From Raillietiella orientalis (taxonomy: Eukaryota), in assembly GCA_036172245.1 (NCBI GenBank), contig JAYWIR010000025.1:2728001-2792000 (forward strand): a DNA stretch of 64,000 nt. The letters are read 5' to 3'. A program made the translations under genes and the position numbers. How positions within the stretch are numbered: position 1 is the first letter of the stretch; every line of letters begins with the position of its first letter. Below the pieces are notes generated by a model. That model saw nothing but the letters and a program-made list of their open reading frames with translations, did no database searches and had not been told where the DNA came from. Positions 25,001-47,099 of this stretch are shown one piece after another.

Positions 25001-28000
25001 GCGCCCTGGAAGGGGGGGACCATCGGATGCTTGGTTTACCCTGGCGAGAGCCAAAGGTCGCTTTGTAATCGTATGAACGAACGATTTGGTTTTCCGATAG
25101 GTGATCAAAACTTGTTTACACTGTGCAGGCAGTTTAATGAAGATACAGCCCTCCGTGCTGTGGGTTCGCCAGCTTGCTCGACGGTCACAAGTTCTTGCAT
25201 TTAATGGATTTACCTTCTCCTCCTCATCCGTGATGTTTTCCTTTGTCTCGGTTGTTTTTAGAGAGGAAAGAAATGGTAAATGATTTTGTGAAGAGGTTAC
25301 GGTGGTGGGTTCTTTATTTGGACCTCCTTTGTCGCGCTGTGTCCAGGCAGGTTGCGACCGAATGTTCCTTGGAAACTGTGCTGAAGGAGACGGGAATCCT
25401 TACTTTTCCCCCGTTTTTAACGTTTCCCGAGTTCGCCGAGAAAGGAATTTGAAGGAACTGCTTATGCCAAGAACCCCATCTGCTTACCCGGTTCGCCGAA
25501 AGCCAAGAGGCCTCAGCAGGTTGGAAACCCCCGTTCCTCCCCCCCTTCCGTACTCCTCGAAGATGCATGTTGGGGGGAGGGGGGAGCAAAGCCAAGAAGC
25601 GGCCGTGACCTTGTCCAGCAGTAATATTTTCTTCCGCCGTGCCGGGCGGGAGATGTCACCGTGGAAACGAACGCTCAGGTCTCCGGCGATATCTCCTCGT
25701 TCGCCCGTTGCTCTGACGATTCCTCCAGCGCTGAAACCGATGTCAGCAGAGTGGATGACATCATTCTTCATTCTCATTCTTCAGACTTGCGCCGTTTTGG
25801 GTTTCGTCCCTTCGTTTTGCTCGTCTGTTCCCGCTGGGAAGCAGGGGGGCTCTTCTGGCTGCCTGGGGCACTATAAAAAGACGAGCACTCGCCGTTTTTC
25901 TGTCTCTTGTGTACAACTTTCAGATGAGCTTGCGTTCTTCCTTCCTTCCTCCCCCCCCCCCCCGTCTAGCCTTCTCTATAGAAGGCAGTAGCAGTCTTCC
26001 GGTGTTTTCCCGAATGGCTATTCGGACTTGCAGGTGAAGAACCGTAAATGCAAATTGCACCTGCATGTGTGCACCTGTTCAAAGCACAGAATAGGTGCAC
26101 ACGTGCCCCTACGCAGTGTCGTTGGTACACAGCGATCCCATGTAAATGAGCGCGCATTGTTGCGCGTGCACCAACGTCGAGATGAATCAGGGCCGGGATT
26201 CGTCTTCCTGGAAAGTCGCGCAGTTTCCCTTTCCTCCTCCCCCTTTCAACGGATGGAGTACGTGGTGTGCGCTCCCGTCCCTTCCACGGGAGCTGCTGCC
26301 CATGGCGCATGCGTGCATTTGTACGGCATTTGTGACCTCCGTCCGTACCATGCTACAGCAGCAGCAGCAGCAGCAGGTCCGGTGGGTGCCGGAAGGAGAG
26401 AGTTCCTGCGTCCTCCGCTCGCTTCATCTCCAGGGATTGCATCTGCAGCCTCACAGCACTGAAGCTCCACTGTCATCCCAAGCAGTTTGGCTCGTTTCGT
26501 ATGTGCTTTGGGAGTGACTTGGAACCGGCGAAGCCGTCTGCTGCTGCCGGGGGCTCGCAGCCAGCGCAAGTCTGTCGGCTCCATGATTTCAACACACGAA
26601 AGAATGCACAGATCGCTTCCTGGTGTTCTTCATCGATTCTGCCAGTCCGTTTTACGAGGTTCCTTCTCTCTTGCTCGATTCGGTCTGCTCCGGACTCACC
26701 TCCTCCGTGCTTTGCGCTGCCATGTTTCAGGCCGAAGGACGGTGCTAACATCCTCCCCCCCCCCCATTCTTTTCAGGAATTCCCCCCCCCCCCACACACA
26801 CACATACACACACACACAAAATGCTGCTGTTTTTCGCGCGAGATGGATTTACTTCTTTCTGTTTGCCTTTTCACGATCTGTTCGCCGCAGATAACTCGGC
26901 ATCAGACGAAGAGGAAAATGGTGTTAAAAACCGATGAGGTGTTTTTCCTGCGGAGCGGTCGCAACGACCACATTCGCGTTGTTTACGGTTGCACGACGAA
27001 CGGAATTAACGCGTTGCTCAGCAGTGATGAGCAGTGAATTCATCGTTGCTGCTAAACATTACTGATGCGACCAGGCAAAAAGAGTAAAGATCAAGAACGT
27101 GCTTCCTCATGCCGCGGATATGAAGAAATTACCGCGATTGGGAGGGGGGGGGGGGAGGTAGTTGAAAACAGAGCGGTAGTGGACACCCTACTGCGTGATG
27201 TTGGTCTTTATAAGGCCGGTTGCGTGGAAACCTTCGAAAAGGTCTGCAAACCAACAAGAGAAGTTGGTGGAATACTCGGAAGCACGAGTGTGTGGAAAGT
27301 GAGAAAGAATACTTTGGGCTTCAGCATGGAGGGGGAAAATGCCGCTTTAGGATGCACTTTGCCAGCGCTACCAGCGGCACCCGCGGCGTCTTTCGAACTG
27401 AACCGTGGAAACCGTTCGCGTGATTCCGGGGAAAGAGCGCGTACCCTTTTCGAATCGGGTTGGAATCCCAGGTTTTTGGAATCCCCGATCGCTTTTGAAG
27501 ATTTTCCCTCGTGCCAAGACAAATGGGCAGCTGGTGACCAGTAGAAACGAAGCTTATTTTTTGTCCGGCAACCAGAAGGGATGTTCTTTCGGAAGCGGTC
27601 GGTCATTCCACGCGGGCCTTCCAAGCTCTTTGGATTATAGGACACTTTCTGGAATGGTGGAGGTGGCGTGCAGGGCGTGAACTCGGCAAGTAAATCGTGG
27701 GGCCGTGTGATGGGGCGGAAGTTCCTACGTTTTCGGTTCGAGATGCAACGCAGACAGCCGCAAGGGATTACCGTGATGCTCACACATGCACGTGACGGGA
27801 ACGAGCCTTTGTGACTATTTGCGCGGATGGGTTCTTCATTAATTTATTGGTGATGGTCGAATTGAGCATCCGAATACGAGGATCACATTCGAGCACGTCA
27901 GTCAGCCTTTGTTCGCAGCCCAATAGTTGTGATGTATACAAATAAAGGATTCCCTCGTCAGTTTCAAGTACTTTCATCTTGTGGCTACATTTTTCATCTT

Positions 28001-31000
28001 CTTGTAACCGAAGTTCTTTAAAGTTTTGTATTCGTGGAGGAAAAATAAATTTCATCTTTCTCGGTTAAGAAACAGTGTCATCTTACAAAGGGCACCGTTT
28101 GTCACCAGGGCAGGAAGTTGGTTCAAATCGCTTCGAAACTTTTTTTTTTTTCTTTCTTCTTTTATCTTTTGGAATGAGCACACACTCATGCAGATTCGGA
28201 ATGCCGTCGACTTCTCTTCGCTCTTACCGAGGGGACCGCGCCTGGGTATCCAGGGGGTTCCCAATGCGAACTCCGTCAGGAACGGCTTTCTTCAACTGTG
28301 CACGTCGAGGAATTGCCTGCGTGCAGCTTTCCTTGCCACCTCGGCGTTCGACACGGAAACTCTTCCTTCCGCCGTGGAACCTCAGCTGAACGTTCTCCCC
28401 TATGTCTTAAGCAGCCTCCAGAATTCTGCCTCGTTTGAGCCGGAATTGCGCCGAAGACGATGGATCCATGGTGGGCTTTCCTTTAGTTGGAAACCGTTAT
28501 GCGTCTAGGCGATGCCGAGGCTACGCACCGACCCTTTCGTTTCCAGACTTTTAAAGAAAGGTCTGGAAACTGAAGGAAGGTGTGGCATTGACGGGATGAC
28601 TATGAAGTTCGAAGACGCTCTTCCGCGTGCTCTTTCTGACCAATGTTTCGCAAAACGGAGTGTGGCGGTCGTTGGGGCGTGTTTTTTTCTTTTTCTTTTT
28701 AACAGGGATGATGCCGAAAGAGTTTTCAGTGTCTCTCTTCCTACGGTGTGGCATCTCTCTGTCAAGGTACTATCAGTTGAGAAAGGATTCTCGTCTCCCA
28801 GATTCTCCTCCGCTGCAGACGTTGTTCTTCCAGTCCATTACCTAAGTGTTCAGAAATACGTCATTGCGTTCGAAGCTGCGCGGGCCATCGTCGCCAACGA
28901 TGAGGACCGTTGCCGCGTGAAATCCCAGGCCGAACCACGTCGCCCGCTGTGGCGGACGGGAATGTGGTGTGCACTCGGCCATCGTCCCCACATGGGGGGG
29001 GGGCGCGATTCGTTCTGGCTTTGAAAGGGAACGCAGTGGCTTCGAAAGCAGCAGCGTACAGCTGTCGACTAGTCGCTGTGTGGTGTGCCACCAGCCTGCT
29101 TACGTCTCGCGCGCGCGTGTGTGTGTGTGTGTGTGTGTCTTTGCGTCGACATGTGCGTGTGCATGCAGTCCGCCGCCTTTTCTGGGAATGCAGTGAAAAG
29201 GGTCGAACGCGGCATTTTTGTTCAGAGAAACGAAACGGTTCACGCGATCTTTTCTTGTGAGATGATCTGTGGAATCTGGGATGATCGTGCAACTGTCTGT
29301 ATCTAGGCAATACCGACGAGAATCCAGCAAACAGCACTGCAGCCAATTCCAGTGTGGCCGGTTCGCCCCCCCACTTCCTTCCCAAAAAGAGTTCTGGTTT
29401 TCTTGTGATGTCACAAGCTGGCTCCACAGTTTCATTGGATTGCAAAGCGACTGGTGAGATCACGCGCGCTCGCGGCCTAGGAGCCATTCGGTTGTCGTCT
29501 TAGGAACGCCTCCCATCCACGTTGAGTGGAGGAAAAATGGCCACACGACTTGGGATCGGTATTTGGGGATGTCGGTAAAGCGACGCAGGAATGGAATGAC
29601 TCTTGAGCTGGAATCGGTGACCACCGTGGACGATGGCGTTTACACGTGCAATGTGTCCAACGCGTACGGCTGGTTCAACCGAACCGTGAACTTCACAGTC
29701 ATGGGTAGGTACCACAGGATCCACAGGAACAGTACAGTTGGTGTGGACCTTGCTTGGTGGAGAGGGTGGAGCTTTTGCATTCAATCTGATTGCACAGATT
29801 AGATGGGGTTATCTGAGCATTCTGTTCTTGGAAGCAGCAGTTTTCTGTGTTTGTGTGTTGCTCAAGATAACCGTCTGTAGAGCGAGATCGTCAAAAGCCA
29901 GTACTTATGGAAAAGCCACGTAATCTCAGCATCCTGCGAGGTTCTACTGCATTTTTCAATTGCACTACGGCCTATTACGATCCTTTCTCCCATTGGAAGT
30001 GGCTGAAAACCAGCTCTCTTTTGGATGAAGGTGAAATAGACAAGCGTATTGCTGGTATTAACATGCAGAATGAAACATGGTTAAAGGTAAAGCAAAGTGC
30101 ATTACTTGGCAGTAGATCGATGGTGGTGGATCAACTAACTGGCAACACCGGCTGTGAAGTCTTTTTTTTTTTTTTTTTTAAAAAAAAAAGAAAAAAAAAA
30201 TATATATGTATATATACATACATACACACATATATATATATGTATATCCACATATCCACACATACGTATATATATACATATATACATACATGTGTGTGCG
30301 AACGCGTGATCGCGTGTTTGCTGAGCACAGCTAACGTGTTGCGTGTTTTTAGAGCGGTTGCCGCACAAACCCATTTTTACAGTACTTCCACAAAATTTGA
30401 CGACGGTCGCAGGTTCCGCCGCAACGTTTCGGTGTGAGGTTTTATCGGACCTCACTTCCCATATTGAGTGGGTGCGCCATTTGTTAATCAATGGCTCCTA
30501 CTCAGATGCCGATGGGATACCGAATATTCAGCAACTCCAGGTTCGTTCGAATACGCTGCGTATTTGAGCGCGCCCCAGTCTCCCGCATGATGATGATGAT
30601 GATGATGCCCTCAGCATGCGTAACTGATTGCAGATCCCGTAGTTTTGAGATTTTAACGTATTGCCTGCTCCAGTTGATAGCAACTGAACCCCCCACCCCC
30701 ACCCCCTCGAGACTGAATGATGGCTGGCAGATACATACATGCATGCATTTCCGACTAACTTCAGGAAGGTCCGATGGCAGTCTTCGGTAACCTGCATGAT
30801 TTAAAAGTCTTGCGTACACCTTGAGTGTAACCAGTAATTCATTCTTGATGACCGCCTGATTCGAGTTAATGCACGCAGTTGGCTTCTTACTAACACTCGG
30901 AACCATGACTTTTGCCCACGGCACGTGTAATCGTTTGCTCTATTAGAACATCAGCGATGTACGCCGGTTGGCCCTTCACAATGTGACACACAACGACAGT

Positions 31001-32602
31001 GGCTGGTACACTTGCATAGCTGCAAATGACCTGGGTTTCAGCCACGCCAGCGCGTGGCTCTCCGTTGTGGATGGTGAGGATTTCAGGGAAACCCGGGGAT
31101 GCTTCATTCTTCTTTTTTTTTGGATGATTTCTAGAGCTGGAAGATGAGCATCTGAACCAGCAGCAGCACAGTTCGTTATTGTACGCTATAACGTCTGTAT
31201 TGTTTACGCTTGGAATGGTGTTGTGTGTACTCGTGTACTGTTACAGACACAGGTTTGCATTCTGGCAGTCTCGATCAGATGAGCTTCTTTTGTCTTAGAA
31301 TCAAAATGCTGAAACTCAAACAGCAGTGCCTGCAAATGTATGAGATGAAAAAAGTTAGGATCCTGCATCCACCCCTGATTTCCGGATCCGTTCAGTTAGT
31401 AAGTGTAAAAGTTACAATAAGTAAACACACTAAATGATGTTGAAGCAATTTCCTGAAATCACGATCGAAAAATCCCGTTCGGAAGGGGAAAAAAAATCCG
31501 TCAGCAAGAGTTTGACAGAATACGAGCTCCCTGTTGATGTGCAGTGGGAAGTTTCCCGTTCCTCTTTGATTTTGGGACCCGTGCTTGGCGAAGGAGCTTT
31601 CGGCAAGGTCGTCCGGGCAGAGTTGGACAGAGGCAAGGGGAAGACCACTGTTGCTGTGAAGATGCTGAGAGGTACAGTGAACAGTGGGAAAGCAGGGGTT
31701 TCCCATTCAGCGATTTGCAGATGCGTTTAGTGATAGCGACATTCTCGATCTCGTTTCTGAAATGGAGGTCATGAAATTGATAGGACCGCACCCAAACATC
31801 ATTAACTTGATCGGTTGCTGCACCCAGGACGGACCACTGTTGGTTGTTGTTGAGTATGCCAAAAACGGCAATCTGAGAGATTACCTGCGAATGAGACGTC
31901 CCATGTATAATTGCGAAACTTCGAATAGAAGCACCGACCTGACCCTTCGCAAACTCATATCTTTCTGCCATCAGATTTCAAGAGGCATGAATTACCTCGC
32001 ATCTCGGAAGGTACTGGGAGCATCTGTCACTCCAGGCACATGTATGCTACTTTTGGGGTTGTAGTGTATCCACCGGGACCTAGCGGCCCGCAATGTGTTA
32101 GTGCGCGATGACTGCGTTCTAAAGATTGCTGATTTTGGAATGGCACGTGACGTGCACGCCAAAGATTATTATCGCAAGCTGACAGATGGCCGTCTTCCAA
32201 TAAAGTGGATGGCACCAGAGACCCTTTTTAAACGTATAGCATGTAGTCAGTCTGATGTTTGGTCATTTGGTGTTCTGATGTGGGAAATATTCACATTGGG
32301 GGGGAATCCATACCCCAGTTTGCCTTCGGTGGAACACTTATTTGGAATGCTGGAACGGGGGCATCGCATGGAATGCCCGTCAGAGTGCCCTCTTGAAGTG
32401 TACGTATACAAACATAATCTAGAATAATAACGTATCCCGTAGGTACATGATCATGAGGGAGTGTTGGGAGTACTATCCAGAGAACAGACCTCAGTTTTCT
32501 GAATTGGAAAGGGAATTCGACAAACTTCTTGTGCTAACAGTAGACCAGCCCTATCTGGCAGTGGGACTGCCTGAGTTAGCTACACCACCCACTAGTATTT
32601 AA
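21922..32602 (+). CDS. FGFR: Fibroblast growth factor receptor (signal peptide, IgII, IgIII, TM, split tyrosine kinase), about 650-666 aa depending on isoform
   Basis: GT-AG, phase-consistent exons: 21922-22012 (signal peptide), 29307-29453 ([12 protein letters not shown]), 29504-29704 ([11 protein letters not shown]...[11 protein letters not shown]), 29881-30086 or 30353-30540 (IgIII N-half), 30947-31073 ([27 protein letters not shown]), 31135-31252 (TM), 31299-31398, 31446-31671 ([15 protein letters not shown]), 31721-32010 ([23 protein letters not shown]), 32065-32399 ([30 protein letters not shown]), 32443-32602 (TAA). The 5' exon assignment is less certain than the rest. Confidence 0.95.
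22361..22410. repeat. 21-bp tandem repeat GCATGAGCGGAGGAGGGAGAC, about 2.4 copies
   Basis: Exact copies at 22361 and 22382, partial copy at 22403. Confidence 0.9.
25729..25800 (+). CDS. FGFR: FGFR alternative signal-peptide or cassette exon SP2 (ATG 25740: [21 protein letters not shown])
   Basis: CTGAC branch and TCCTCCAG acceptor; 72 nt, phase 1-1; hydrophobic core; the donor GTTTCG is weak. Confidence 0.55.
29881..30086 (+). CDS. FGFR: FGFR IgIII N-terminal-half exon, variant A ([43 protein letters not shown]...)
   Basis: 206 nt, phase 1 to 0, open; has the Ig B-strand Cys and C-strand Trp; AG and GTAAAG splice sites. Confidence 0.85.
30162..30298. repeat. T18-A10GA10 run followed by a (TA/CA)n microsatellite between FGFR exons A and B
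   Basis: Directly visible in the sequence. Confidence 0.9.
30353..30540 (+). CDS. FGFR: FGFR IgIII N-terminal-half exon, variant B ([43 protein letters not shown]...DGIP)
   Basis: 188 nt, phase 1 to 0; closely resembles the vertebrate IIIa exon; CTAAC branch and TTTTTAG acceptor. Confidence 0.93.
31446..32602 (+). CDS. FGFR: FGFR tyrosine kinase domain exons and short C-tail (..[19 protein letters not shown])
   Basis: All catalytic motifs are intact; introns of 49, 54 and 43 nt. Confidence 0.97.
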
Positions 32603-33940: not shown

Positions 33941-36899
33941 TATTTGAAGATGTCTTGGAGGAGGCTATTGCATGGAAACAGTGACATTGGGTAAATAAAT
34001 TGCCACGAAATGAGTATTTCACTGTAATGCATAATGATTGTAAAAAAAATATATCATGAAAATTATAAAGACAACCCAGTCCAAATACACTGAGAACTCT
34101 ACACTGGATGCATTTATTTTTCAAGTTCAAGTAGAATAAATGTTACTTTTTTTTAAGTAAGAGACAGTCCTGTAAGGTTTTTAATATCACTTATCAAACA
34201 TTGGCAACATTTTGTCGTCCGTGGTTACTTTAGTGCCGCCTTTTCTGTAAGAAGAAAAGAAAAAAAAAAGGGGGGGGGGGATTTGTTCTCCATTCCGCAA
34301 CGAATTGGCAACAATTTTTTTTGCAGTTTGCTGCGCTTTTGCACAAATATGCCGACTTGTGTTGAACAAATCACGCAACCCACGACTCTGCAAATGAATC
34401 TGTAGATGTAAATGTTTGTTGGCTTGCGATGAAACACACACACACATACACATATATACACACGCGACCGCGCAGTCTTGAAGTGAAGGAAATATCTACG
34501 TCTTAAAACTCGATCCAATTAAGATTATTCTCCCCCCCCCCCCTCCCGAAGCAAACACTTCCGATGGTGACTTTCCACTGCTGCAAAGTGCCCAATTTCA
34601 CATTGGCCCCCCATGCCTGCCACAGAGCACGACCTTCCCGGAGGATCCCTTTCCTTGCACCCCGGTTGTCCGTGAGCACAGGCCCCACTTTTGCACACGC
34701 CATACTTACGGCAGCATGCCTCGAGCCGAGCAGTGAGTGGCTGCACTACGGTGGAGGAGGCCGTGGTGCTGCTGCAGCACATGTCCCGTGGATCCTTTCT
34801 GCTGGGGGACAAAGAGTGCCCGGCACTCCAGGAGCCTCGCGAGCCCGGACATACCAGCAGAGAGAGAGGGAGGGCTCGCCCGGCTGCACACTGCGCACCC
34901 ATGACTTTGACCTCGGTCACAAGCTAGGCAGGCGGCGTTTCGGGTCGGCTGAATTTTCGCGCGCGTGTCATCGAGTGGGTAATCGCGAGTTGGGGCGGGG
35001 GAGGGGGGGGGGGGTTAGCAACAGCAACTCTACCACAAGCGTGGGGAGGAACGCGCGTCGGGGGGACAAAATTCTCGGTTCTTGCTGAGCACTTGCAGAA
35101 TGCAAGTGCTCAGCAAGTGTGTCCGTCCCCTGCCCCTCGCCCCGTGCAGGAAGGCATACCAAGAAGAGACGTGCATCCGTTGCCATTAACGAACACCCCC
35201 ATCCAACTAGACACAAGCGGTCCAGCAAAGTATTTTTTTTTTTTTTTTGCGTTTCGTTTGATCCCGTGTTTCCTGTTTTTTATCCCCTAAGCAAGTATTC
35301 TTAAAAGAACCGGGAATTCCCGTTGCATTTGCAAGAGCCCCACGTGGGTCTTGTTGCAGGTGTTCCTTTGCTGCATCGTGCTTTCGGGGTTTTTTAGGTG
35401 CTTGGCAAGAGTTTCGTGGGGACAATATCGCCAGCGGACCGCAGTTTCCTTTTCATAAGTAAACTCGAGATGATTACAGCTAAGGTGGTCGGTCGCAACG
35501 GATAGTTACATCCGTCGTCAGAAACCAACTCTGGAAGATGCGATAAGGATGCTGTTTCAGCAAGGACTCCCCCCATTTTCATGCTTGCACGCCGATCCCC
35601 TGCGGAGCAGGAAGCAGGAGAACGCGACTGCCAAACGTTCGCCCTGCTTGCGCAGAAATGACAGTCCCCCCCAAAAAAGCCCTTCCTCGTACTCCTTTTT
35701 CGGGATTTCTCCTCCCTCCCCTTCCGTTTCCAGGAGGATCGACGCCACGGCGGTTACGAGAGGGGCCGCGTGCAGCGCTCGGCAGTAGATGGACGTCCGA
35801 CTCCGGCCGGGAGTCGGACGAGGCCACGGGGGAGAAGGGAACCGCCGCGTGTCTTCGAAGGGGAATGGAGGGAACTCGGGGGGAACAAAGACGCATCGCG
35901 AAACGGAGGCGCGCGAGGCGGCGGCCAGGTCTTCCCGGAGGAGCGAGTCCGTACTCCAGCGAGAAGGCAGATGTCGGCGGGTGCACGGCGTTCGGAGGCT
36001 GAGACGAGCAGCCGGACGGCGCAGAGGGCATCGCCGCAAAGCGTGAGAGGGCAGGGAGGAAAAGGGTTCGCAGGAGGAGGAGGGGGGTACGAAGGGTAGG
36101 CAGACCGGCGGTGGAGGGAAGGGCGAGGAGGTGCTGCAAGGGGCACGCGGTCGCAAAGACGAGGAGACCCGCGTTCCCGCCGTGCTCGCTCGCCTGGTCG
36201 TTCGGGAGGAGGCACACGCGCGCTCTCTCCGGTGGTCAGCGGTACCGTGGGGGGTGTGCGCGTGCGCGCCAGGGGGAGGGAGAGGGAAGGCAAGCAGCTC
36301 GGCAGGCGCCGCCGCCGTCGCTGCAAACGCAGCGCGCGCAAGCGCACGACTCACCTGGGCCGGCTGGGCGCGCTGGCAGCTCGCGAAGGCACTGCCGAGG
36401 TCGCGGCGCGTGAGCGCGCGTCCTCTTGCGGCGCTGAAGCCAGCTGGCCCCTCCCCGCGCACGCGCCCGAGGGGCGGCCAGGTGCGGGAGGGGGTTCGCG
36501 CGTAGGGAAGTGGAAGGAGGCGCCGTCCCAGCCTCCCTGCAGACCGACCGGCGCCGATTCAGGAGCGGGGCTGGTCACCCGGGTAGGCGCCATCCCTCCA
36601 GGGGGGAGCAAGGAAGCTGGTCACCCGCGGAGCGATCTCCGCCACCGACACGCGGATGCGTGACGCGTTCCTCTTGCCTGTCCCGACGACTTCCGGCCGG
36701 ACGCCGCCCCCTCCTCCTCCGAGGGAACATCCAACACTCGGCTTCTCCTCACCCCCCTTCCCGGGAATTCTGGGGAGGGGGGGGGGGAGGACTCCCAGAG
36801 TCTCCTGAGCGACGACAACCCGACCGACTGGACGCCACGTCGACAGAAGCGTGGCTGCTCTCACGTGGACGCGCTCATCCCATTTCCTCCTCCTCCTCC

Positions 36900-39800
36900 T
36901 CCCTTCCGGGAGGAGGAGGAGGGAAAAGAGCTCCACTTACGCTCCTGGTCCCCTCCCCTTCCGGGGGACTTCTCCTCCCTCCCCTTTGGGAGATTTTTGC
37001 GCGCTGCCACGAGACCCCTCTGCGTGCTGAGGGGGACGCGGCGGCATCCCCGCGGTGGCGTGCCGTAGGGAAAGAAGCGGGGGGGAGGAAGGAGGAGAGC
37101 TTCCCGAAAGGCCTGGAGCCTGGAGGCGGCCTCGCAAGCCACTCTCCCCCTCCCTCCCTCGCCGTGACGCTGCTGCGCATGCTCAGCCACCACCGAGGGT
37201 GGGTTTCCGCCAGGAGGCGGCGGTGCCGGGGAAACGCAGCCGCCGCCGCCGCCGTGCGATGGCATGCGCTACCGGGTCCGTGCGTGGGGGAGGAGGGCAG
37301 GGGTGACAATCGGCATCTCCGGAAGGGGGAGGGGGAAGTGCCGGAGGCTCGGGACCCTTCTTGGGAGAGAGAAGGTCGCCCAAGAGACTGCGACCACCGT
37401 CTCCGCAGGAGCCGGTGCCCGTAGGAGGCCGGGAGGAGGTCCTGCTTCCGCGGCGTGGTTGCCGTGGAGATAGCGGGCACGTTGCGGCCCGTGCTGACCG
37501 TAGCGCTTGCCTTCCTGCAACTCCGCTCCAGAAGATGCAACGGCCATGGCGACAAGGTGGGGGGCCACAAAGGTCCGCGACGCCGGCAGGACCTGGTGTG
37601 AAGACCTAGGGGCAGGTCGCCCCGCCGTAGAGCGACCTCCAAGAGACGCACCCCCCCAAGGAGACGGGTGCGGGCTCGAGGCCTGGGGCGGGATGAGGTG
37701 GTTGGATTGCCTCCCTCCTGCCCCGCCCCCCGAGCTAAGTTGCCCCGAAGCTCCTCGGGGGACACACGGGTTACCCTGGGCAGGTTGTTCGATGGCCTTC
37801 GGGCTCTTCAAGGGGGTTGCGCGCACAGGTCTCGGGATCCCTCGGATTCTCCGCCCCCTCCGGCGGCCAGCCTATCTCCACGGTCGCCGGAGGGTAGCAC
37901 TCGACGTACTTCCTGGGTCCACGAGCGAGGGCTGACCTTGGCCGTTTCCCCACCCCCCGCCGGACCTCTTCCTCGGCCTCTGTCAAGGGTGCTGATCCGC
38001 CCTCCCGACTCCCCGGCGGCGTCACCCCGGGGTTCCCGCTGCCCTACCCCTGATGTTTCTCCGAGAGGGGAGGCAGGCGGGGTCGCCGCCCCGTCTCCTC
38101 CCGGAGGACGAGCGCCTGCCTGCTGCTGCAGGCGCTCCTCCTCTCCGAAGAGTGGCAGCCGCCCCCCTCCGTCCGCCCTCTGCGGCTTTCTGAGCTCGAG
38201 GGCGGGGCCTTTGAGAGGGGCCACCGGAACCCTCCAGGGTATCGGTGCCGCCTGCCGGAGGGTCTGCGTGTCGCGTGGGAAAGCAGCCGGGGAAGGGGTC
38301 GAGGAAGAGGACGCAACTGAAAAGCTCCCCTCCCCCTCCCTCCTTCGAAGGGAAGCCGAGCAGGGACGGGGTAGCGGCAGAAGAACGAACAGATCAGAGG
38401 GCCAACCCCGAATTCCGCGGCTTCGAATTTTCCCTCCTTCGCGTGGTTTCCGACGTGCCCTTTTAGGGGGGTGAGGGAGAAGGAGAGGGGAGAGACAGGG
38501 TGAGTGGGGGGCGGACGGAAGGAGGAGGAAAGCAGCGAGCGGCGGCAGCAGCAGCAGCGTGCGGCGTAGCGCACGCTGAAAGGAAACTTCCGCTGCAACG
38601 GGAGGAAACGGGAGACGTGTGCGCCCCGCGAGGGTCGGAGCCCGTTTGTGGAAGGTGGCGGAACGATCCCTCGCCCTCCCTGAAGTTTCCTGCTCACGCA
38701 CATCTTTTCGCGCATGGGGCTCTTTCCCACTATCTCAGGCTTGCGGCATCTATGGACCCTCTGTCGAACTAACCCCATCCCCTTCCTCCTCTCTCGAATC
38801 ACGTGATCGCCGCTGCGCGCGCTTGCGTATGCTCCCGATATCGGAGTGACAGTCAGCACCAGCACACGCGCGATGATGCGCGTATGCGGCTCTGCGTACG
38901 CGCGTGCGAATTTTGCTGCGCTCGGACGCACAAGACTTTCTCGGCAGCGGGTGCGTTCGATTCCGTGCGCCGACGTGGCGTTGCGCCACCGTACATTCTC
39001 CCGACGGGACAAAGGCCTTTTTCCGCGTGCGTACGTATGGAGAAGGAGGAGGGTTCGGCACGCCTTCCTCCTCCCCCTGCAGCCGCACCCTCACCTTCGT
39101 GGGTTCCCCTCGAGCTCGAAACTTCGAGCCTCTGGAAGAACGGGAACGGAGAACTCTTCGGCCTTCTGACTAAGATCAAAGTGTCAAAGAAATCGTCGGT
39201 GGCGGATGGGCACCGCCGCGGAAGACGGAAAGGTGGAGCTTCCCGGGAAAGACGTGGCGACGGATTTCGGTCGCTGTTTCACCGTACCATCCATTTGAGA
39301 GAAGGGAAGGAGAAGGGGGATCGGAGCGCGTCTTTTTTTGGCTCTTCCGGAATCCTGGATTCCCTTCATCGGGAGTTGAAGCGACGCACTTGTCCTTCCC
39401 TCCTCTTCGGGCTCCAGGACTCCTTGTGGGAAAAGCGCCCTAAGGAGCCATTCCCTGCGCTCATCCGCAGGTAAGGTCCGAGGGATTCCTCTCGGCTTCG
39501 GGGATCCCCCCGCGGCTTCGAGGTCAGCGCGGGTGGTCTTGCAGGTCGCCTGGCTTCCTCCCTTCGTTTCCAAGCGCCCCGTCGATGGTCAGCGAGGGAG
39601 GGAGGAGGCGGACTGCACCTACGCGGCCCTCGCTGCATCGCACCGGGTGCGGGTGTTCCCGCTGAGCAGCGGCAGCCTGGTGGACGGAAGGTCACATGAC
39701 CCTGTGCCGCGCTTCCGAGGGTCCCTTTCTGCTGTTCTGGGAGGACGCGCGCCACGGATGCGCGGATGCTGCGGACGGGAAGTGCCCCAGGGGCGGCGAA

Positions 39801-41100
39801 GCGGCGCACATCGCGGAGGCGCGGCTGACCCTCGCGGGGACAGGCATCTCCACGGTTACCGGAACGCTCTCTCGCCTCCTCCCACTGCAGCGGAAGTTTC
39901 CTCTCAGCGTGCGTTACGCCGCATGCTGCTGCCGCCGCCGCCTTCCGAGCCCCCTCAGCCTGTCTCTCCCCCCCTCCCTCCCCCCCTCAAAAGACCGATG
40001 CCTTCCCCCCCGGCCCGGTTCTCCCACACACCTGAAGGCGACCGCAGCATCCAGGAAAAAAACTGCACGCCCAGGGATTGCGTGGCGCCCGTCGCCTCCA
40101 TCCATGAGGGCGGAGCGCGGATGCCGCACCAGCAGGGAAGGAGAAACGGAGACCGGGGACGAGTCCACCGTTCGGGAAGAGGCTGGCGCCGTCCGGGGGG
40201 AGGTGGGCAGAGGCGTCAAGTGAGACCGATCCCGGAGGGGTGGGTGGGCTCTGGTGGGTTCTCTCCGCTTGACTGGCCGCCCACGCTGAGGGAGGCTCCG
40301 TTCGGATGCTGGGGTGGAGGGGCTCGGTGGAAAAGGTAACACGGGGCTCTCCCATCCGGAAAGGGGAAGAGACGGGATTTTTTTCGTCAGCGGGGAAACA
40401 CGTAACGGGGCCTTCTTCCCCCATCCCTCCCTCCCCTTGCTTTTGAGATTTCACGACCTCTGGCACGGGAAGGGGAAGGGAAGGGAGGGGGCGACCATCC
40501 CCGAGGGCGGTCGGGAACGCAGTTCCGTCATAGTCTCTGCACGAAGAGCGCCAGATGTGCCCTCCGCGTTCCCAGTGTTCTTCCTGTCGCTGGATTGCAT
40601 TCCCCTCGGGGCGTGTAACTCCCCCCCCTTCGGCACCGCACAGGCGCAGCTCGCAGCGGCGATGTCCACTCCGCTGGCCTCGTGCGTTTCGGGGCGCTTC
40701 CGTCTCCATGGAGGTCCTCGGAGGGAGCGTCTCGTCCCGCTGCCTCAGAGGGTGCCGCACCAGGCAGTCTGCGCCGTCCCTCCCGAAAGGACCCCCAGGC
40801 GGCCGGACAACGCGGATCCATCGGAAAGGGTCGCCACCACGGCCGCCGTCATCGGTCCCGCTCTTCCACGGAGGAGGGCCCGCAGGCGCCCTGGGGAGGC
40901 GCACCTGTCGCCTGTGTCTTCGGCGGGGCTCGGCGCCGGTTCCTCGGCAACATCCTCGTTCGCCACAGCCCCATCGAGTGACCCCGTGCATATCGAGCCT
41001 CCGGCTGCTGCCAGCTGGTCTGAAAGGCAAGGGGCTGGGGAGGAGGTGAATTCTTAGCTGAGGACCCTCGGTCTGGCGAGTGGATCCCATTCTGATCCTG
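36900..41100. repeat. Two weakly similar direct-orientation blocks (about 36950-37450 and 40400-40910), probably old TE relics
   Basis: Patchy collinear similarity, e.g. 36963-37015 vs 40407-40470 and 37370-37440 vs 40825-40900. Judged by eye only. Confidence 0.3.
38460..39993. repeat. Inverted repeat with arms at about 38460-38636 and 39827-39993
   Basis: Core 38560-38597 matches the reverse complement of 39886-39923 at 36/38 positions; the flanks align more loosely. Confidence 0.85.
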
Positions 41101-42396
41101 CCGAGGTCTCCAGGCGCAAGCAGCTGCAACACCTTCTCGGAACGGCGCCCCCAGGCGGCGCCATTGCTTCCCGTCACGGAGCACGGAGTCACGGAGCGCC
41201 TTCCTCAGATCTCCAGAATCCGCTCGGACCCAATCTTGGTTGCCTCTTCTTCTTCCGCCTCCCCCCGGAGTGTCCGAACGTTTCCGTGTGCGCCCGAGCG
41301 GCCCACCTCGGAGTTTCCGGGGTTTCTGGCTGCTCCCGGGCCGAGGGGATGGAGGACATCACTCTAGTAGGGGTCGCTACTGCCTCATCGGTGGTGGCGT
41401 CGTCGGCACCTCGGTCGCTGCTGGAAGCAGCGGACCGCCTTCGCCCAAGGGTCTTTGCCCCCTCGGGCATCCGCGTGCGTCCCGACCTTCCTCGATGGCC
41501 TTCTCTTCGCCTCCCCGCAGCGCCCGAAGGTGCGCGTGTGGAAGGGGGTCGTCCATCCCCGGTATGAGCGAGGGTTTCCCGCCCTCCGACGCTGGTAAAA
41601 CGAGGGTGAGGAAAAGGGAGGGGAAGGGGGGAAGGAGCTTATCGCTTCCTCCTCACTCCCACTATCCGCTCATGTCCTGGAGAAAGCCCACCCTCACCCT
41701 CGCCTCCAGTAGATTCTTCGAGGGGAGAGGGGATTTTCCTTCCTTCCTGCTATCTGACCCCGCGTCCGAGTTGGACGGGCGGGGTGGGTAGAAATGGGGG
41801 AAGAATCTGGGTGGGCGAATGGCTTGGGGGAGTTTCGTCTCCCCTTTCCCCTGCCTCGTGCCTCTGCCCCCAGCCAGCACAACGGAGCGCCTGATGACGT
41901 CGTGCGGTCGCTTGCCTGGGGCCGAGAATCCAGTTTGAGGGTGGACTGGTGTGGGGAAGTGGATCGAAGAGGATGGCGACGCCGAGAATGGGGGTCAGGA
42001 CCCCGTTCCCTCCCTAGGACGAAGCAAGTGGGGAAGGAGGAATCCTTTTTTTCTTTGGGTGGGGTGAAGTGTGGGAGTGAAACTTCGCCTCTCGAGGAAA
42101 CTCCGAAACGGCCCGGGGACGACTGCATCTCGTCCTTGCGTCCTCGCGGCGCGTTCCTCCTCCCCCCCCCCAAGTGGCGGGGGGGACCGGGACGCAGCAC
42201 ATCGGACCCGCTGTGTTTCCCTTCGCCCTCCTCCCTTTCTCCCGCCGAAGAATTCCCCAGATTCCCTCTTCCTACTCCCGTTTCGTCCCGTTCCGCGCTC
42301 TCTGCCCCCCTCCTTCTTCGGCTTTTCGCTTCGACAGACGACAACACGCGGCCCTGCATGGCCTCCGGGGATTCGCGCCGCCACCGGGCCGGCTGG

Positions 42397-42432
42397 TATA
42401 ACAGCGGGGCTTCCTGCGAGCTGCTGCTAGTC
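42397..42432 (+). promoter_or_regulatory. Possible TATA/Inr core promoter of BicC
   Basis: TATAA at 42397 in a very GC-rich background, with CTAGTC about 32 nt downstream and about 300 nt before the ATG. Confidence 0.25.
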
Positions 42433-42718
42433 GAGCAAGCGACGGTGCCTGAAAGACACGCGCACGCGAGCGCCACCTCCGCCTGCTTGCCACCGCCGCA
42501 GCGACGTTGCGCCACCGCCGGTGCCACCGATCCCCACCCACCCTCTGCCTCTCTGTGAGCCCCGTGTGCGCCGCGCACCGCCGCCACATCCGCCGCCGCC
42601 GCAGCGCCCCCCTCGCTTCCGCTTCCTGCGCATGCCGTCCCCCCCTCCTCCCGGACCTCGCCTACCTTCCTGCCCATCCGCAACCGGAGCAGCCTCGCCG
42701 TCGGGACTCCGGGAAGGC

Positions 42719-43753
42719 ATGCTGTCCATTATCTCGCCTACCTCTTCCACCGTCTCAGCCCTGAAACTCCCGCTCGAAGGCAGCGAGCCCAGCGCCACCG
42801 AGGAGCCGTCCAAGCCGGTAACGACCCCTTCCTTCACCGTTCCCCCTCCGACTCCTTGCCGAGGGAGAACTTCTCCCCCGTCCCTCCCGTTCCCTGCGCC
42901 CCTCCGTCCTTGGTCCCGCTTGCTTTTCTTCCCTCTCTTCTTTCCCAGTTGAAGAAGGTGCTCCTCAAGATGGACGTCAACTACAGCGACCACTCCCACA
43001 TCATAGGCAGATCGGGGACCTCCATCAAACAGGTCGGTCACCTCCCTTTCCCGCTGGTGGTTTCGTCACCGTCTTCCACCATCCCCGTCCCCTGCGCGCG
43101 CCGCCTTCCTCTCCTTTTTTCTCTCCTTCTTTCGAGCGGTGGAGGCGAGCGCGCGGAGGGTCCCACGGGCACGACCACGGAGTCTGTTTCTCTTGCGCGC
43201 TCCTCAGGTGATGAACAGCACAAAGTGCCACATCCACTTCCCTGACTGCAACAAGGGGTCGACTAACGAGAAGAGCAACCAGGTGACCATCGCCGGGGAG
43301 ATGCCGAACATCGAGCTCGCGAGAGCCAGCGTGCGGGTGCGTTGGCGAAGGAGGGACTTCCTCACTTCCACCCCTTCTCCCCTGATTTCCCGCCCTGCTC
43401 CCTTCCTCGTGTTCCTTCTTCCTCCCTTCCTCCCTCCCCCCATACCTTTGATGGTTCACTCCAATCCATCTCACCGCCAGAAGCTGATGCCAGTCATCTT
43501 CCACGTGGAGATGAACTACGACGTGCGCGACCTGCTGACTCTCATCAAGCAGCTCCAGAACAAGTTCAACTTGCAGGTGGGATGAAGGGTCCCGTCGAGT
43601 TGCTTCCCATCTGACGGTCCCGCGCCGCTCAGGTGTACTTCCGCCAGAACACGGTGTCCATCAAGGGGAGCTGCTGGGAGCTGGATATCATAAAGAAAGC
43701 CTCGGACACCTTTCTAGGCTGGCTGGCCAACATGGGCAAGGTCCGAGAGAAAG

Positions 43754-43786
<33 letters not shown>

Positions 43787-46700
43787 CGTGTGTGGTTTGG
43801 AGAGGGGCGACGAGACGAACGTATCTCGGAAGGGGGATGGGGCTGTCGCGGAGGGCGAGGGAGGGACGCACGCGGGAGAAAGGGCGGTCGTGTGGAACGT
43901 TTCTTCCTTGTGCCTTCCACCCTCAGGTGCCCCAGATGACCTACATGGTGGTGGAGGTCTCTGTTCAGCATCACTTGTGGGTGTGCGGGGACCAAAACGC
44001 GAACCTCCATTCCATCATGAAGCGGACCAACACCGTGGTGACGCCTCCCAACTCAAACGACACGAACCTTCACCCCCTGCGGAAGACCACCTTTCTGATA
44101 AGAGGATGCATCCAGAATACGTTCCAGGCCACCCAGTACTTTATGGTACTTATTCCTCGTTTCTTTCGTGAGCTTCCCTAGTAGCTCTGCGCGCGTGGTT
44201 TTCCCCTCCACCCTTCCTTGTTTCCCCCCGGAGCCACCACGCACGATTTCCTCAGGGTATGCTTCCGATCACACTCTCGTTCGACATCAACCAGATGACT
44301 GATCTGGACCCCACGCTGGTCGAGAACATCATGACCAGCTACGACGTCGTCATACTGACTAAGCCGAAGCCGCGGATAGGAGTCAAGTCGGTGCTCATCA
44401 AGGGGTACGAAAGCAACGCAGGTAACGCGCACGTCTTCTCCCCAGCTCCCATCTCTCTCTCTTTATTCCTCCTCTTTCCCATCCTCCCTCTTCCTCCACC
44501 TACTCTCACCATCCACTCTTCCACTTTCTCCTCCATTTTTCTTCCTCCATTTTTCTTCCTCCTCTTCTTGCTCCCTTCCTCCATTCCTTCCTCCCCCTCT
44601 GGCTTTTTTTTCTTTACTCATTCTTCCACTTTCTCCGTTTCTCCTCCACTTTCTCTTCCACCTGCCCATCCGTCCACTCTTACACTTACTCCCTCCTCCT
44701 CCGTCCCCTCGTATTCCTTCCCCACTCCCTCTCCTCCTCTTCCTCCTTCTCTTTTTCCTCCTCTGAACTCTTCCTCCCCCTCTTGACTTCTTCACTTAAC
44801 TCCTCGCCCCCCATTCCTTCTCCTCCTCCTCCATCTGCTCCCCGTTTCTTCTCAACGAGGGCGGGAGCGGAAAGAAGAAGCGAGACCTCTCTTCATTCCC
44901 CACCCCCCTCCCTCTCCTTAATTTCCTAGGAAACGTGTACGCTGCCCGTCGAAGACTGCTGAGGCTGGACGAGGAGCCCTTTGAGGTCGACTTCCCGGAG
45001 AACTTCAAGCTGCCCGACGTACGGCCCTTCTACAGAAAGAACTACATAAGTATGGCTTGTCCCCTCCTCCGTCCGCACCTCCCCCTTCCTCTTTGTTACT
45101 CCCGTTCTCTGATTGGCCTGTCTTTCGCCTCCGGCGGCCTAAGGTTACCGCTTCAAGAACCCCTGCCAATGGAGCTGTCACAGCGTACCCTTCCACTGGA
45201 AGTCTCCCGACACGCAATTGTGCGGCAACTTCATCTCTCCGTCCATGATGGGCTGCGTTCACCAGGCGCCGCTCCTGGCGCATCCCGCGCTGGACACCGG
45301 CAGGAGCTACCGGACTGGTTTCTACGACGGCGCGACCCTTCCCATCTGGAGAGCGCCGTCCCCGCTCCGGATCGGTGCGCGCTTCTGCCCCTCGTCGGAG
45401 GAGTCTGCGGATAGACCGGTCCGGGCCGGTTCCCCGATCTGCAGCCGGGATGGAGAGCCGAAACCGGACTCCCGGGGCGGCAGCACCTCTCCCTTGGATC
45501 CCGAAGACGTCGGGCTGTCCAAGCTGTGTTCCAACTTTTCCCGCCTCGAGGACTTATTCTCTATGCTTCCGGATAGGCGCGCGCCAGGATGTGAGATGTC
45601 CGCGCTCACGCAGCTGGACCTGCACCAGAGGAAGCTCCTGTCCTGCAAGAGTGAGTGACCTCGCACTACGGGGGGGGCATCCTCCATCTTCCTTGACGCT
45701 GTCCCTCTCGCAGCCATGTCCCGCATCCCCAACGGCGAGGTGGAGAAGGTGCCAGACTCTTCCTGGTCGGGGCTGTCCTGCAGCAAGTCCGCGTCCCTGG
45801 TGCAGCAGGTAGGAGGGTGTTCACGGAGTCCCTTCTTTCCTCTCCGTTCGTCCCAGGTCTCCTCCTCCTTCGGAGGGGAGCCGTGGACTCCGACGGTCTG
45901 TTCCCCCAAGGAGCGCAAGGCCAGGTCTGAGAGCCACCCCAAGCTGCAGATGAACCTCAGTTGCCTGAGCGACTACTGGAAGCCGGGACCCCTGTCGGGC
46001 GAGCAGTGCGATTCGGACTACGCGTCCCAGGACCTGGCGACCCTGTTGGCCAACGCAAACCTCAGCAAGTACATCGGTGAGGAGGGGCAGAAGGGTGGGG
46101 AGTGGCAGTCCGGTGGACGGAGGGTCACGTTGCTCCGTCTCCGCGGGGTGCAGACGTTTTCCAAACCCAGGAGGTCGACATGAGCATGTTCGTCACCTTG
46201 AACGAGCGGGACCTACAGGACCTAGGGATCACGGCTTTCGGGTCCCGGCGGAAGATGCTGTGCTTGATACATGGTGAGTCCTCCAGGGTGGGGTTCCCAC
46301 GGGAGGCCCCTGGGCCGCCTTCTGGTTCCGTGCCTCCTGGCGTCGAGGAGGTCGCGTCTCGGTCCCACCCGCCGGCGCCGCCGCTGCTGATAGGGACAAC
46401 CTTCCTTCCCACCCCCCCACCCTCGCGCCGACCTTTTCTCCCTCCCTCCTCGCGCCTCTCTCTCCCGAAAGCTCTCACTCCTCCCGGAGGCGTCGCCATC
46501 TAGGCGAGTAGGGGAGGCGAGTAGAGGACCCGGGAGAAGAGTTGACTAGTCGATCCGGGACGCGAGGAGGCCTCTCCGATTCTAAATGCCCTCCGGGCAG
46601 CACAGCCCTTGGCTCCGCCCGAAGAGAGCATCCAGCGGCATGCGCGGAGGATGGGAGATGGGAGAGGCGGGGTAGGAGTTTGAAGATGGGACAGGAGGAG

Positions 46701-47099
46701 TGGTTCCGGAGTCTGCCGCGTGAGACGGGAGGCTCCCGACTCGGAGGAAGCAGTCAGAAGCACTCTCGCTTATGCTCCCGTCGTCTCCTTGACGAGGTCC
46801 GACTCTCGCGCGTTCCGCTCTGCCTGGTCTCTGTCGGTGTGTCCCGGGACGTGGAGCCGTGGAATTCCTTTTTCCCCAGTCCATGATGCTGAGGTCAGCT
46901 GAGACTTTCGTGCCTTCTCCAAGTCCAAACGAAGGGGTGAGGCGAAGAGAGCAGAGCGCTCGACGCACGCCGGCGCCGGAGTCGTGGGCGACGACGACCC
47001 TGCGCTTCTTCCTGGTCGCATGGAGGCTGCTGCGACGGCTGATTTTTTGCTTCTCGTTTTCTTCCAGAGTGCAGGAAGAAGCTGGAGCGCTCCTTCTAG
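42719..47099 (+). CDS. BicC: Bicaudal-C family RNA-binding protein (KH/KH-like domains plus SAM), divergent, about 664 aa
   Basis: Exons 42719-42817, 42949-43032 (LKMDVNYSDHSHIIGRSG), 43208-43336 (CHIHFPDCN..EKSNQVTIAG), 43481-43576, 43633-43740, 43927-44145, 44256-44421, 44930-45049, 45144-45650 (RRAPGCE, KLLSCK), 45714-45808 (WSGLSCSKS), 45857-46076, 46154-46273 (SAM: QEVDMSMFVTLNERDLQDLGITAFGSRRKM), 47068-47099 (TAG). Total 1995 nt, frame-consistent. First and last exons are less certain; an in-frame upstream ATG lies at 42632. Confidence 0.92.
44440..44835 (+). repeat. About 400-nt pyrimidine-rich (C/T) low-complexity tract in a BicC intron
   Basis: Almost no G on the + strand between the exons ending at 44421 and starting at 44930. 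Confidence 0.9.

Follow-up and report, generated by a model that had tools for sequence, protein, structure and literature searches.

A putative pair of mutually exclusive exons for the N-terminal half of IgIII in an FGFR-type gene of Raillietiella orientalis

The DNA studied here is a stretch of 64,000 nucleotides from Raillietiella orientalis (GenBank assembly GCA_036172245.1, contig JAYWIR010000025.1, positions 2,728,001 to 2,792,000 of the forward strand), which is called the window below and to which all coordinates refer. Its plus strand holds an intact and compact gene for a receptor tyrosine kinase resembling the receptors for fibroblast growth factors (FGFRs), as judged from splice sites and translated frames. 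This gene houses two neighbouring exons, A (29881..30086) and B (30353..30540), each encoding the linker between the second and third immunoglobulin (Ig) domains (the D2-D3 linker) together with the N-terminal half of the third (IgIII, or D3). We consider it probable that A and B form a mutually exclusive pair of such exons, termed IIIa, and that the gene thereby gives two receptor isoforms with different linkers and different first D3 strands, the incompatibility of the reading frames acting as a safeguard and splicing factors making the choice.

According to this proposal A and B would be alternative IIIa exons, duplicated in tandem within one FGFR gene, and either one would be spliced between the IgII exon, which ends at 29704, and the sole exon for the C-terminal half of IgIII (30947-31073). 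The isoforms would thus differ in the linker and in the N-terminal half of D3. Exclusivity would be enforced at least by the reading frame, as inclusion of both exons or of neither leads to premature stops; the resulting mRNAs would be unproductive and are probably removed by nonsense-mediated decay (NMD). Which exon is taken presumably depends on tissue-specific splicing factors. B would represent the conserved, canonical form and A a fast-evolving variant, and the two isoforms probably differ in their preference for FGF ligands.

Structure and homology of exons A and B

Exon boundaries in the window were read off the sequence as splice sites, frames are translations and joins were scripted from coordinates; every intron of the gene is of the GT-AG kind. 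Exon A comprises 206 nt, or 69 codons counting the split first codon, and lies between an acceptor ending in CTGTAG and the donor AAG/GTAAAG. Exon B comprises 188 nt, or 63 codons, with an acceptor ending in TTTTTAG and the donor CAG/GTTCGT; the donor of A is the closer of the two to the consensus. Both exons start in phase 1 and end in phase 0, and both open with the split codon G+AG followed by CGN (Glu-Arg), a start that they have because the exon upstream stops at 29704 in phase 1. The Ig half that follows the linker contains a Cys and a Trp in each. The lengths, phases, Glu-Arg starts and half-domains had been set out in a previous note made from the sequence alone (the original prediction), with which the features and coordinates found here agree.

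The two peptides are homologous (BLASTP, 16/43 identities, E 8e-9 as a single comparison), with 63% of the aligned residues differing. Both match the Pfam family Ig_3, A over profile positions 1-47 (E 0.0019) and B over positions 1-39 (E 0.0011), in each case below the gathering score. When compared with the chains of the PDB by phmmer, B finds D3 of FGFR4 (E 5e-16) and of FGFR3, FGFR2 and FGFR1 (to E 2.5e-10), the aligned part running from the linker into D3. A aligns with FGFR1 at the same position of D3 (query 1-44 to chain 110-153, E 1e-4). Moreover, in an alignment with 38 arthropod IIIa exons A keeps in register the Glu-Arg start, K-P, N-x-S/T, G-S, the Cys of F-x-C and the Trp. It has three N-x-S/T sites, and it differs from B at the two linker residues following Glu-Arg and at the next residue, which is His in B.

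Only one C-terminal half is available to the pair. Over 29705-31440 the three forward frames contain a single DxGxYxC motif, which lies at 30995, and a tblastn search over the whole window (E < 0.01) returned two IIIa-like segments, namely A and B, and one C-terminal half, with no third IIIa-like copy found anywhere in the window. Both results bear out the statement in the original prediction that a single C-terminal half (30947-31073) serves the two exons.

Reading frame and the intron between the exons

Joins containing A only or B only are open through the transmembrane exon. Joining A to B at 30353 causes the frameshift that had been foreseen, with the first stop 15 codons into B, and skipping both exons leads to a stop 27 codons past the junction. 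Since the lengths of A and B are both 2 mod 3, inclusion of exactly one exon is the only productive choice at the normal sites.

The original prediction had carried the caveat that a cryptic CAG at 30328..30330 would permit an in-frame join of A and B, and the scripted join of A, 22 nt and B is indeed open. If acceptor 30331 were in regular use, A and B could both be constitutive and the receptor would have an extra half Ig domain. Four automatic insect gene models join both exon types likewise. Nevertheless we hold this arrangement to be most improbable: an AG falls in a compatible frame by chance in 1/3 of cases, and the 22 nt comprise a branch-point-like CTAAC (30331-30335) and the short T tract which follows it ahead of B, that is, the equipment of the B acceptor. 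In addition, two N-terminal halves with one C-terminal half should be unable to form regular Ig folds, and, where a species offers isoform sets or transcript-like contigs, every product carries one type. The surroundings of the cryptic site also contain a 15-nt direct repeat (80% identity), in which 30312-30326 is a degenerate copy of the acceptor region of B (30341-30355), 29 nt upstream; the CAG stands directly after the upstream copy.

The early stop of the A+B join would also suit a different role, in which A is a regulated poison cassette that is joined with B at 30353 to give a frameshifted, NMD-targeted mRNA, lowers receptor output and never becomes protein. This is improbable, as a poison exon has no need of Ig-like coding, whereas A keeps its Cys, Trp, glycosylation sites and frame-compatible length, and in relatives the second IIIa exon serves as an alternative that codes for protein.

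Steric exclusion does not seem to be the mechanism by which one of the two exons is left out, because the A-B intron (30087..30352) is 266 nt long, which suits ordinary splicing, and both introns look to be of the U2 type. The intron contains, at 30162-30200, a run of T18 followed by A10-G-A10, an 18-nt inverted repeat that is 94% complementary and has no loop; this could form a hairpin between the alternative exons or could be plain low-complexity DNA. An (AT/AC)n microsatellite of about 100 nt follows at 30200-30300. Competing RNA pairings of the docking/selector type were considered and rejected: the best complementarity, 18 nt between 29999-30016 in exon A and 31028-31045 in the C-half exon, was matched or beaten by 14/100 dinucleotide shuffles. 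Such pairings are not required of the class of mutually exclusive exons.

The same event in other arthropods

Predicted isoforms belonging to one gene, taken from matches of the kinase-exon search and from cluster look-ups, were aligned pairwise. In a first set of seven pairs, four, from the beetles Anthonomus, Diabrotica, Tenebrio and Popillia, are distinguished by a single block, which extends from the E-R of the D2-D3 linker to just before the C-terminal half of IgIII; the remaining three of that set differ N-terminally or by one residue. In a second set a IIIa-block difference was found in 9/15 pairs, from Daphnia pulex (two pairs), D. pulicaria, D. carinata, Macrobrachium, Eriocheir, Procambarus, Homarus and Penaeus indicus, the other six differing elsewhere, and a third set yielded 3/10 (two pairs from the barnacle Amphibalanus and one from the isopod Armadillidium). 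No difference in this block was seen in the pairwise alignments of mite, priapulid and gastropod isoforms. The blocks that vary in the 16 pairs line up in register with A and B.

One IIIa type each is found in six decapod contigs from Logan, which are 3.3-7 kb long and have near-full open reading frames (ORFs) of 791-813 aa, the alternative type in P0286 and P0235 and the canonical type in P0284, P0285, P0287 and P0239; these contigs must be cDNA-like. Four unsupervised gene models (termite, damselfly, firefly and wasp) hold both types in tandem with a few extra residues between them. They are artefacts of the kind named in the caveat on in-frame A+B joining, and they give the genomic order in those four insects as first type, then second type.

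In decapods and the isopod (P0281, P0283, P0288, P0292, P0293 and P0264) the Cys of the Ig disulfide is replaced by Gly, Asp or Ala in the alternative IIIa exon of malacostracans, and two residues are added ahead of the Trp. The transcript-like contigs P0286 and P0235 nevertheless carry this Cys-less exon alone.

The proposal originally advanced, that two mutually exclusive exons encode the N-terminal half of IgIII, is in keeping with the homology of A and B, their phases, their 2 mod 3 lengths, the stops met on double inclusion or skipping, and the arthropod parallels. For Raillietiella orientalis itself exclusivity is presumed.

Status of exon A

The alternative that deserves most attention is that A, as a duplicate in decay or one that was never used, would be a pseudo-exon, with B constitutive and a single form of the receptor. 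Several observations favour it or weigh against a functional pair. The pyrimidine tract at the acceptor of A is poor. The top PDB matches of A are Robo Ig domains (E 6e-6) and not FGFR, from which A appears to be a generic-looking, divergent Ig half. Its branch in the tree of IIIa exons has a length of 2.5, and it scores at most 24.2 bits on any arthropod IIIa profile. A phmmer search with A of 1.84 billion representatives gave 265 matches at E<=0.001, and the 150 of these that were listed, all long multi-Ig proteins with about 23-43% identity, include no specific relative and no ortholog; a metagenome tblastn scan found none either. As no relative of A was found, the case for purifying selection on it would have to come from its own intact frame, its splice sites and the hallmark residues of an Ig domain. 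The reading frame of A is open for 188 codons (29871-30434), right through the A-B intron, so that openness alone is weak evidence that A is coding. The XP_ isoforms of RefSeq used in the comparison are computational models (those of Armadillidium are from GenBank).

Moreover, genes with a single IIIa exon exist. The metagenome scan with B gave five loci with 34-46% identity, three of which (L001-L003, from one eukaryote) contain an IgII C-terminal half, one IIIa exon 46% identical to B and one IIIb/c-type exon, the IIIa exon having no copy in tandem; L004 and L005 do not extend far enough to judge this. A word-based search of longer proteins with B returned none at E<=0.01, the 63-aa query being at the detection limit for a database of such size.

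Despite its 63% divergence, A nevertheless keeps its splice sites, its phase and its 2 mod 3 length, contains no stop and has the Ig hallmarks in register, which is suggestive of use. Fast-evolving alternative IIIa exons are, in addition, normal in FGFR genes, the malacostracan one having lost its Cys and yet standing alone in transcript-like contigs. We regard a disused A as unlikely, although by no means negligible, and the mutually exclusive pair, in which A would be transcribed and translated, as the preferred reading.

Placement of the gene and its exons

In a 336-aa alignment the kinase of the window gene shows 50-62% identity to each of the 38 FGFRs compared, and in a FastTree analysis of 39 kinase domains the gene forms a long branch, sister to the copepod Tigriopus (0.859), inside a pancrustacean grade. 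Three points count against this placement: the range of identities takes in cnidarians, the deeper nodes are weak (0.111 and 0.601), and the sample contains one mollusc and no annelid, echinoderm, chordate or other deuterostome. The gene is probably that of a pancrustacean arthropod and the species probably not an insect, tree support being weak for both.

The insect IIIa exons fall into a first and a second type, for which profiles were made. B obtains 65.6 bits on the second-type profile versus 45.6 on the first-type, and groups in the FastTree analysis of IIIa exons with the second type and the barnacle exon X2; by these scores B would clearly belong to the second type. A obtains 24.2 bits on the second-type profile, 17.8 on the first-type and at most 12 on the Daphnia and decapod profiles. 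The first-type exon of the termite matches A (34.7 bits, tblastn) but its second-type exon does not. In the IQ-TREE exon tree A is a long branch without support, and in the FastTree one it stands beside barnacle X1 and Artemia (0.444), next to the first-type clade (0.84). Orthology of A with the decapod alternative exon, with which it has short motifs in common, was rejected, as the profile score is only 6.1 bits.

The barnacle isoforms P0314/P0313 and P0312/P0339 have first-type-like and second-type-like blocks (scored with the insect profiles, 27.8 vs 15.7 and 37.7 vs 15.1 bits). As the barnacle carries both types, the split between them would predate the insects, and the pair labelled insect-specific in PMC5703972 seems to be older than that label implies. 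The malacostracan IIIa pair clusters together with 97% ultrafast bootstrap in the IQ-TREE analysis, and each malacostracan type is common to the isopod and the decapods in the FastTree one; this pair may be a separate duplication.

A broader interpretation is put forward tentatively, since we would rate it at somewhat less than an even chance. The IIIa pair would not be specific to insects, having been either ancestral to Pancrustacea or gained recurrently within them. With the two types already separate in a barnacle, and malacostracans having a pair of their own, the window would hold a third and strongly divergent version. Exon A would accordingly represent a new duplicate specific to its lineage or else, among known exons of the first type, the most derived. 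In that case the N-terminal half of D3 would be a second, convergent switch of ligand specificity beside the chordate IIIb/IIIc.

Relation to known switches in FGFR genes

Alternative splicing of FGFR D3 is a classic case of one receptor gene reading different ligands according to tissue. In the solved vertebrate FGF-FGFR complexes the linker and the first loops of D3 touch the ligand, and the mutations of Apert syndrome are in the FGFR linker, which supports ligand contact there. It is because of these contacts that the isoforms proposed for the window gene would probably differ in ligand preference. A similar difference is suggested for two FGFR isoforms of Tribolium by the title of the study on them (FGF8 versus Branchless signals).

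The vertebrate or chordate IIIb/IIIc exons of FGFR1-3 resemble the pair proposed here in being tandem-duplicated, mutually exclusive half-Ig exons in D3. The lengths of the vertebrate IIIb and IIIc exons are not multiples of three, so that, as with A and B, double inclusion or skipping breaks the frame. To our knowledge control by Esrp is known for chordates only. An invertebrate FGFR whose specificity for FGF ligands depends on mutually exclusive exons is egl-15 of C. elegans; its exons 5A and 5B, unlike A and B, are placed between IgI and IgII, share no homology and do not encode Ig half-domains. The chordate switch differs from the window pair in acting on the C-terminal half of D3, whereas A and B concern the N-terminal half and are followed by one C-half exon. 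The introduction of PMC5703972 describes the IIIb/IIIc switch as altering ligand specificity, and that paper states that it arose in stem chordates and that non-chordates have one IIIb/c exon. The independence from the vertebrate switch that had been claimed for A and B is upheld.

The suggestion that a pair of this kind was undescribed did not hold. The Fig. 7 legend of Burguera et al. 2017 (PMC5703972) reports a mutually exclusive event on exon IIIa for insects, namely Tribolium castaneum fgfr and Apis mellifera, labels it insect-specific, and the paper cites Sharma et al. 2015 (Dev Biol 402:264, its ref. 42) for two Tribolium FGFR isoforms. Crustacean isoforms are moreover annotated in RefSeq. 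A survey of crustacean receptor tyrosine kinases (PMC11024359) lists alternatively spliced FGFR1-A1/A2 transcripts in two crabs, with no location given for the difference; apart from these transcripts, no paper on a crustacean IIIa pair came up in our literature searches.

The insect pair is the closest known system. It concerns the same gene family and the same exon (N-terminal half of IgIII, Glu-Arg start, phase 1), with two tandem copies and one downstream exon of the IIIb/c type, and in the four insect tandem models the divergent copy is upstream of the canonical-like copy, as in the window. It differs in that A is without the signature of the insect first type, an extra residue in the stretch K-P-Y-I-K-D-G-Y-P. 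The crustacean FGFR isoforms are likewise similar, as their alternative blocks run from the E-R or E-H of the linker to just before the C-terminal half of IgIII, one variant being conserved and one fast-evolving; in the malacostracan alternative exon the Cys that A keeps is lost.

Taken with the isoform comparisons, these parallels suggest that the IIIa event spans insects, branchiopods, malacostracans and barnacles, a range wider than the label in PMC5703972. The window would add another species to an arthropod switch on the half of D3 opposite to the chordate one; it is of a known type and opens no new question. Its value lies in correct annotation, with two isoforms and not a fused or single model. 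In addition, an exon as divergent as A could help to map the residues of D3 that set the choice of ligand.

Structure of the gene and its surroundings

From its domains the window gene reads as an FGFR-type receptor tyrosine kinase, with Ig domains of which D3 is split into IIIa and IIIb/c exons, a single transmembrane segment and a kinase of the FGFR type; its closest named proteins are FGFRs, with 70-75% identity on one kinase exon. Pfam matches to I-set and Ig_3 cover its Ig pieces at 29458-29703 and 30947-31072. The first exon recognised on the plus strand, at 29307..29453, would encode a linker together with the N-terminal half of IgII, the Ig domain ahead of IgIII; it runs from phase 1 to phase 1 in an open frame, with an acceptor TATCTAG and a donor ACTG/GTGAGA, its 5' boundary being a prediction. 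The ORF in which it lies (29285-29500) gave no match at E<=0.01 in the Pfam scan. The exon for the C-terminal half of IgII (29504..29704) ends in phase 1 with the donor GT at 29705 and matches I-set (E 1.2e-10, profile 23-90/90); it is also picked up by tblastn with the Daphnia and Macrobrachium FGFRs.

Downstream of the pair, the C-terminal half of IgIII is encoded by one exon (30947..31073), which goes from phase 0 to phase 1, matches I-set (E 7.5e-6, profile 55-90/90) and is the putative pro-orthologue of IIIb/IIIc. The transmembrane exon (31135..31252) was recognised from its splice sites and a hydrophobic stretch in the translation, and a juxtamembrane exon is predicted at 31299..31398 from splice sites and frame. 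Four exons (31446-31671, 31721-32010, 32065-32399 and 32443-32602) encode the kinase domain and end with the stop TAA at 32600-32602, all on the plus strand like the preceding exons. Three pieces of them match PK_Tyr_Ser-Thr (PF07714) with E 1.6e-17, 3.5e-44 and 8e-5, and their joined translation of 336 aa is open and contains HRDLAARN and DFG.

IgI, the acid box and the signal peptide were not found: the 64 forward ORFs of 22-29.8 kb gave no Ig match except the IgII exon, and tblastn with seven FGFRs gave no match upstream of 29503. A weak match to RNA_pol_N (RNA polymerase 8 kDa subunit; E 0.0015, below the gathering score) at 26928-27062 on the plus strand may represent a small gene lying directly upstream of the FGFR gene, and its position suggests that the 5' end of the latter is within about 2 kb.

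The stretch 36000-42000 has 63-70% G+C and long open frames in all six frames; it gave no Pfam match in the forward-strand portion scanned (ORFs starting at 42068-46903). The downstream gene, at about 43000-46300 on the plus strand, is a homologue of Bicaudal-C, with matches on successive ORF pieces to KH_1 (E 4.5e-4 and 3.4e-3), KH_BICC1 (E 1.3e-11) and SAM_1 (E 1e-7).

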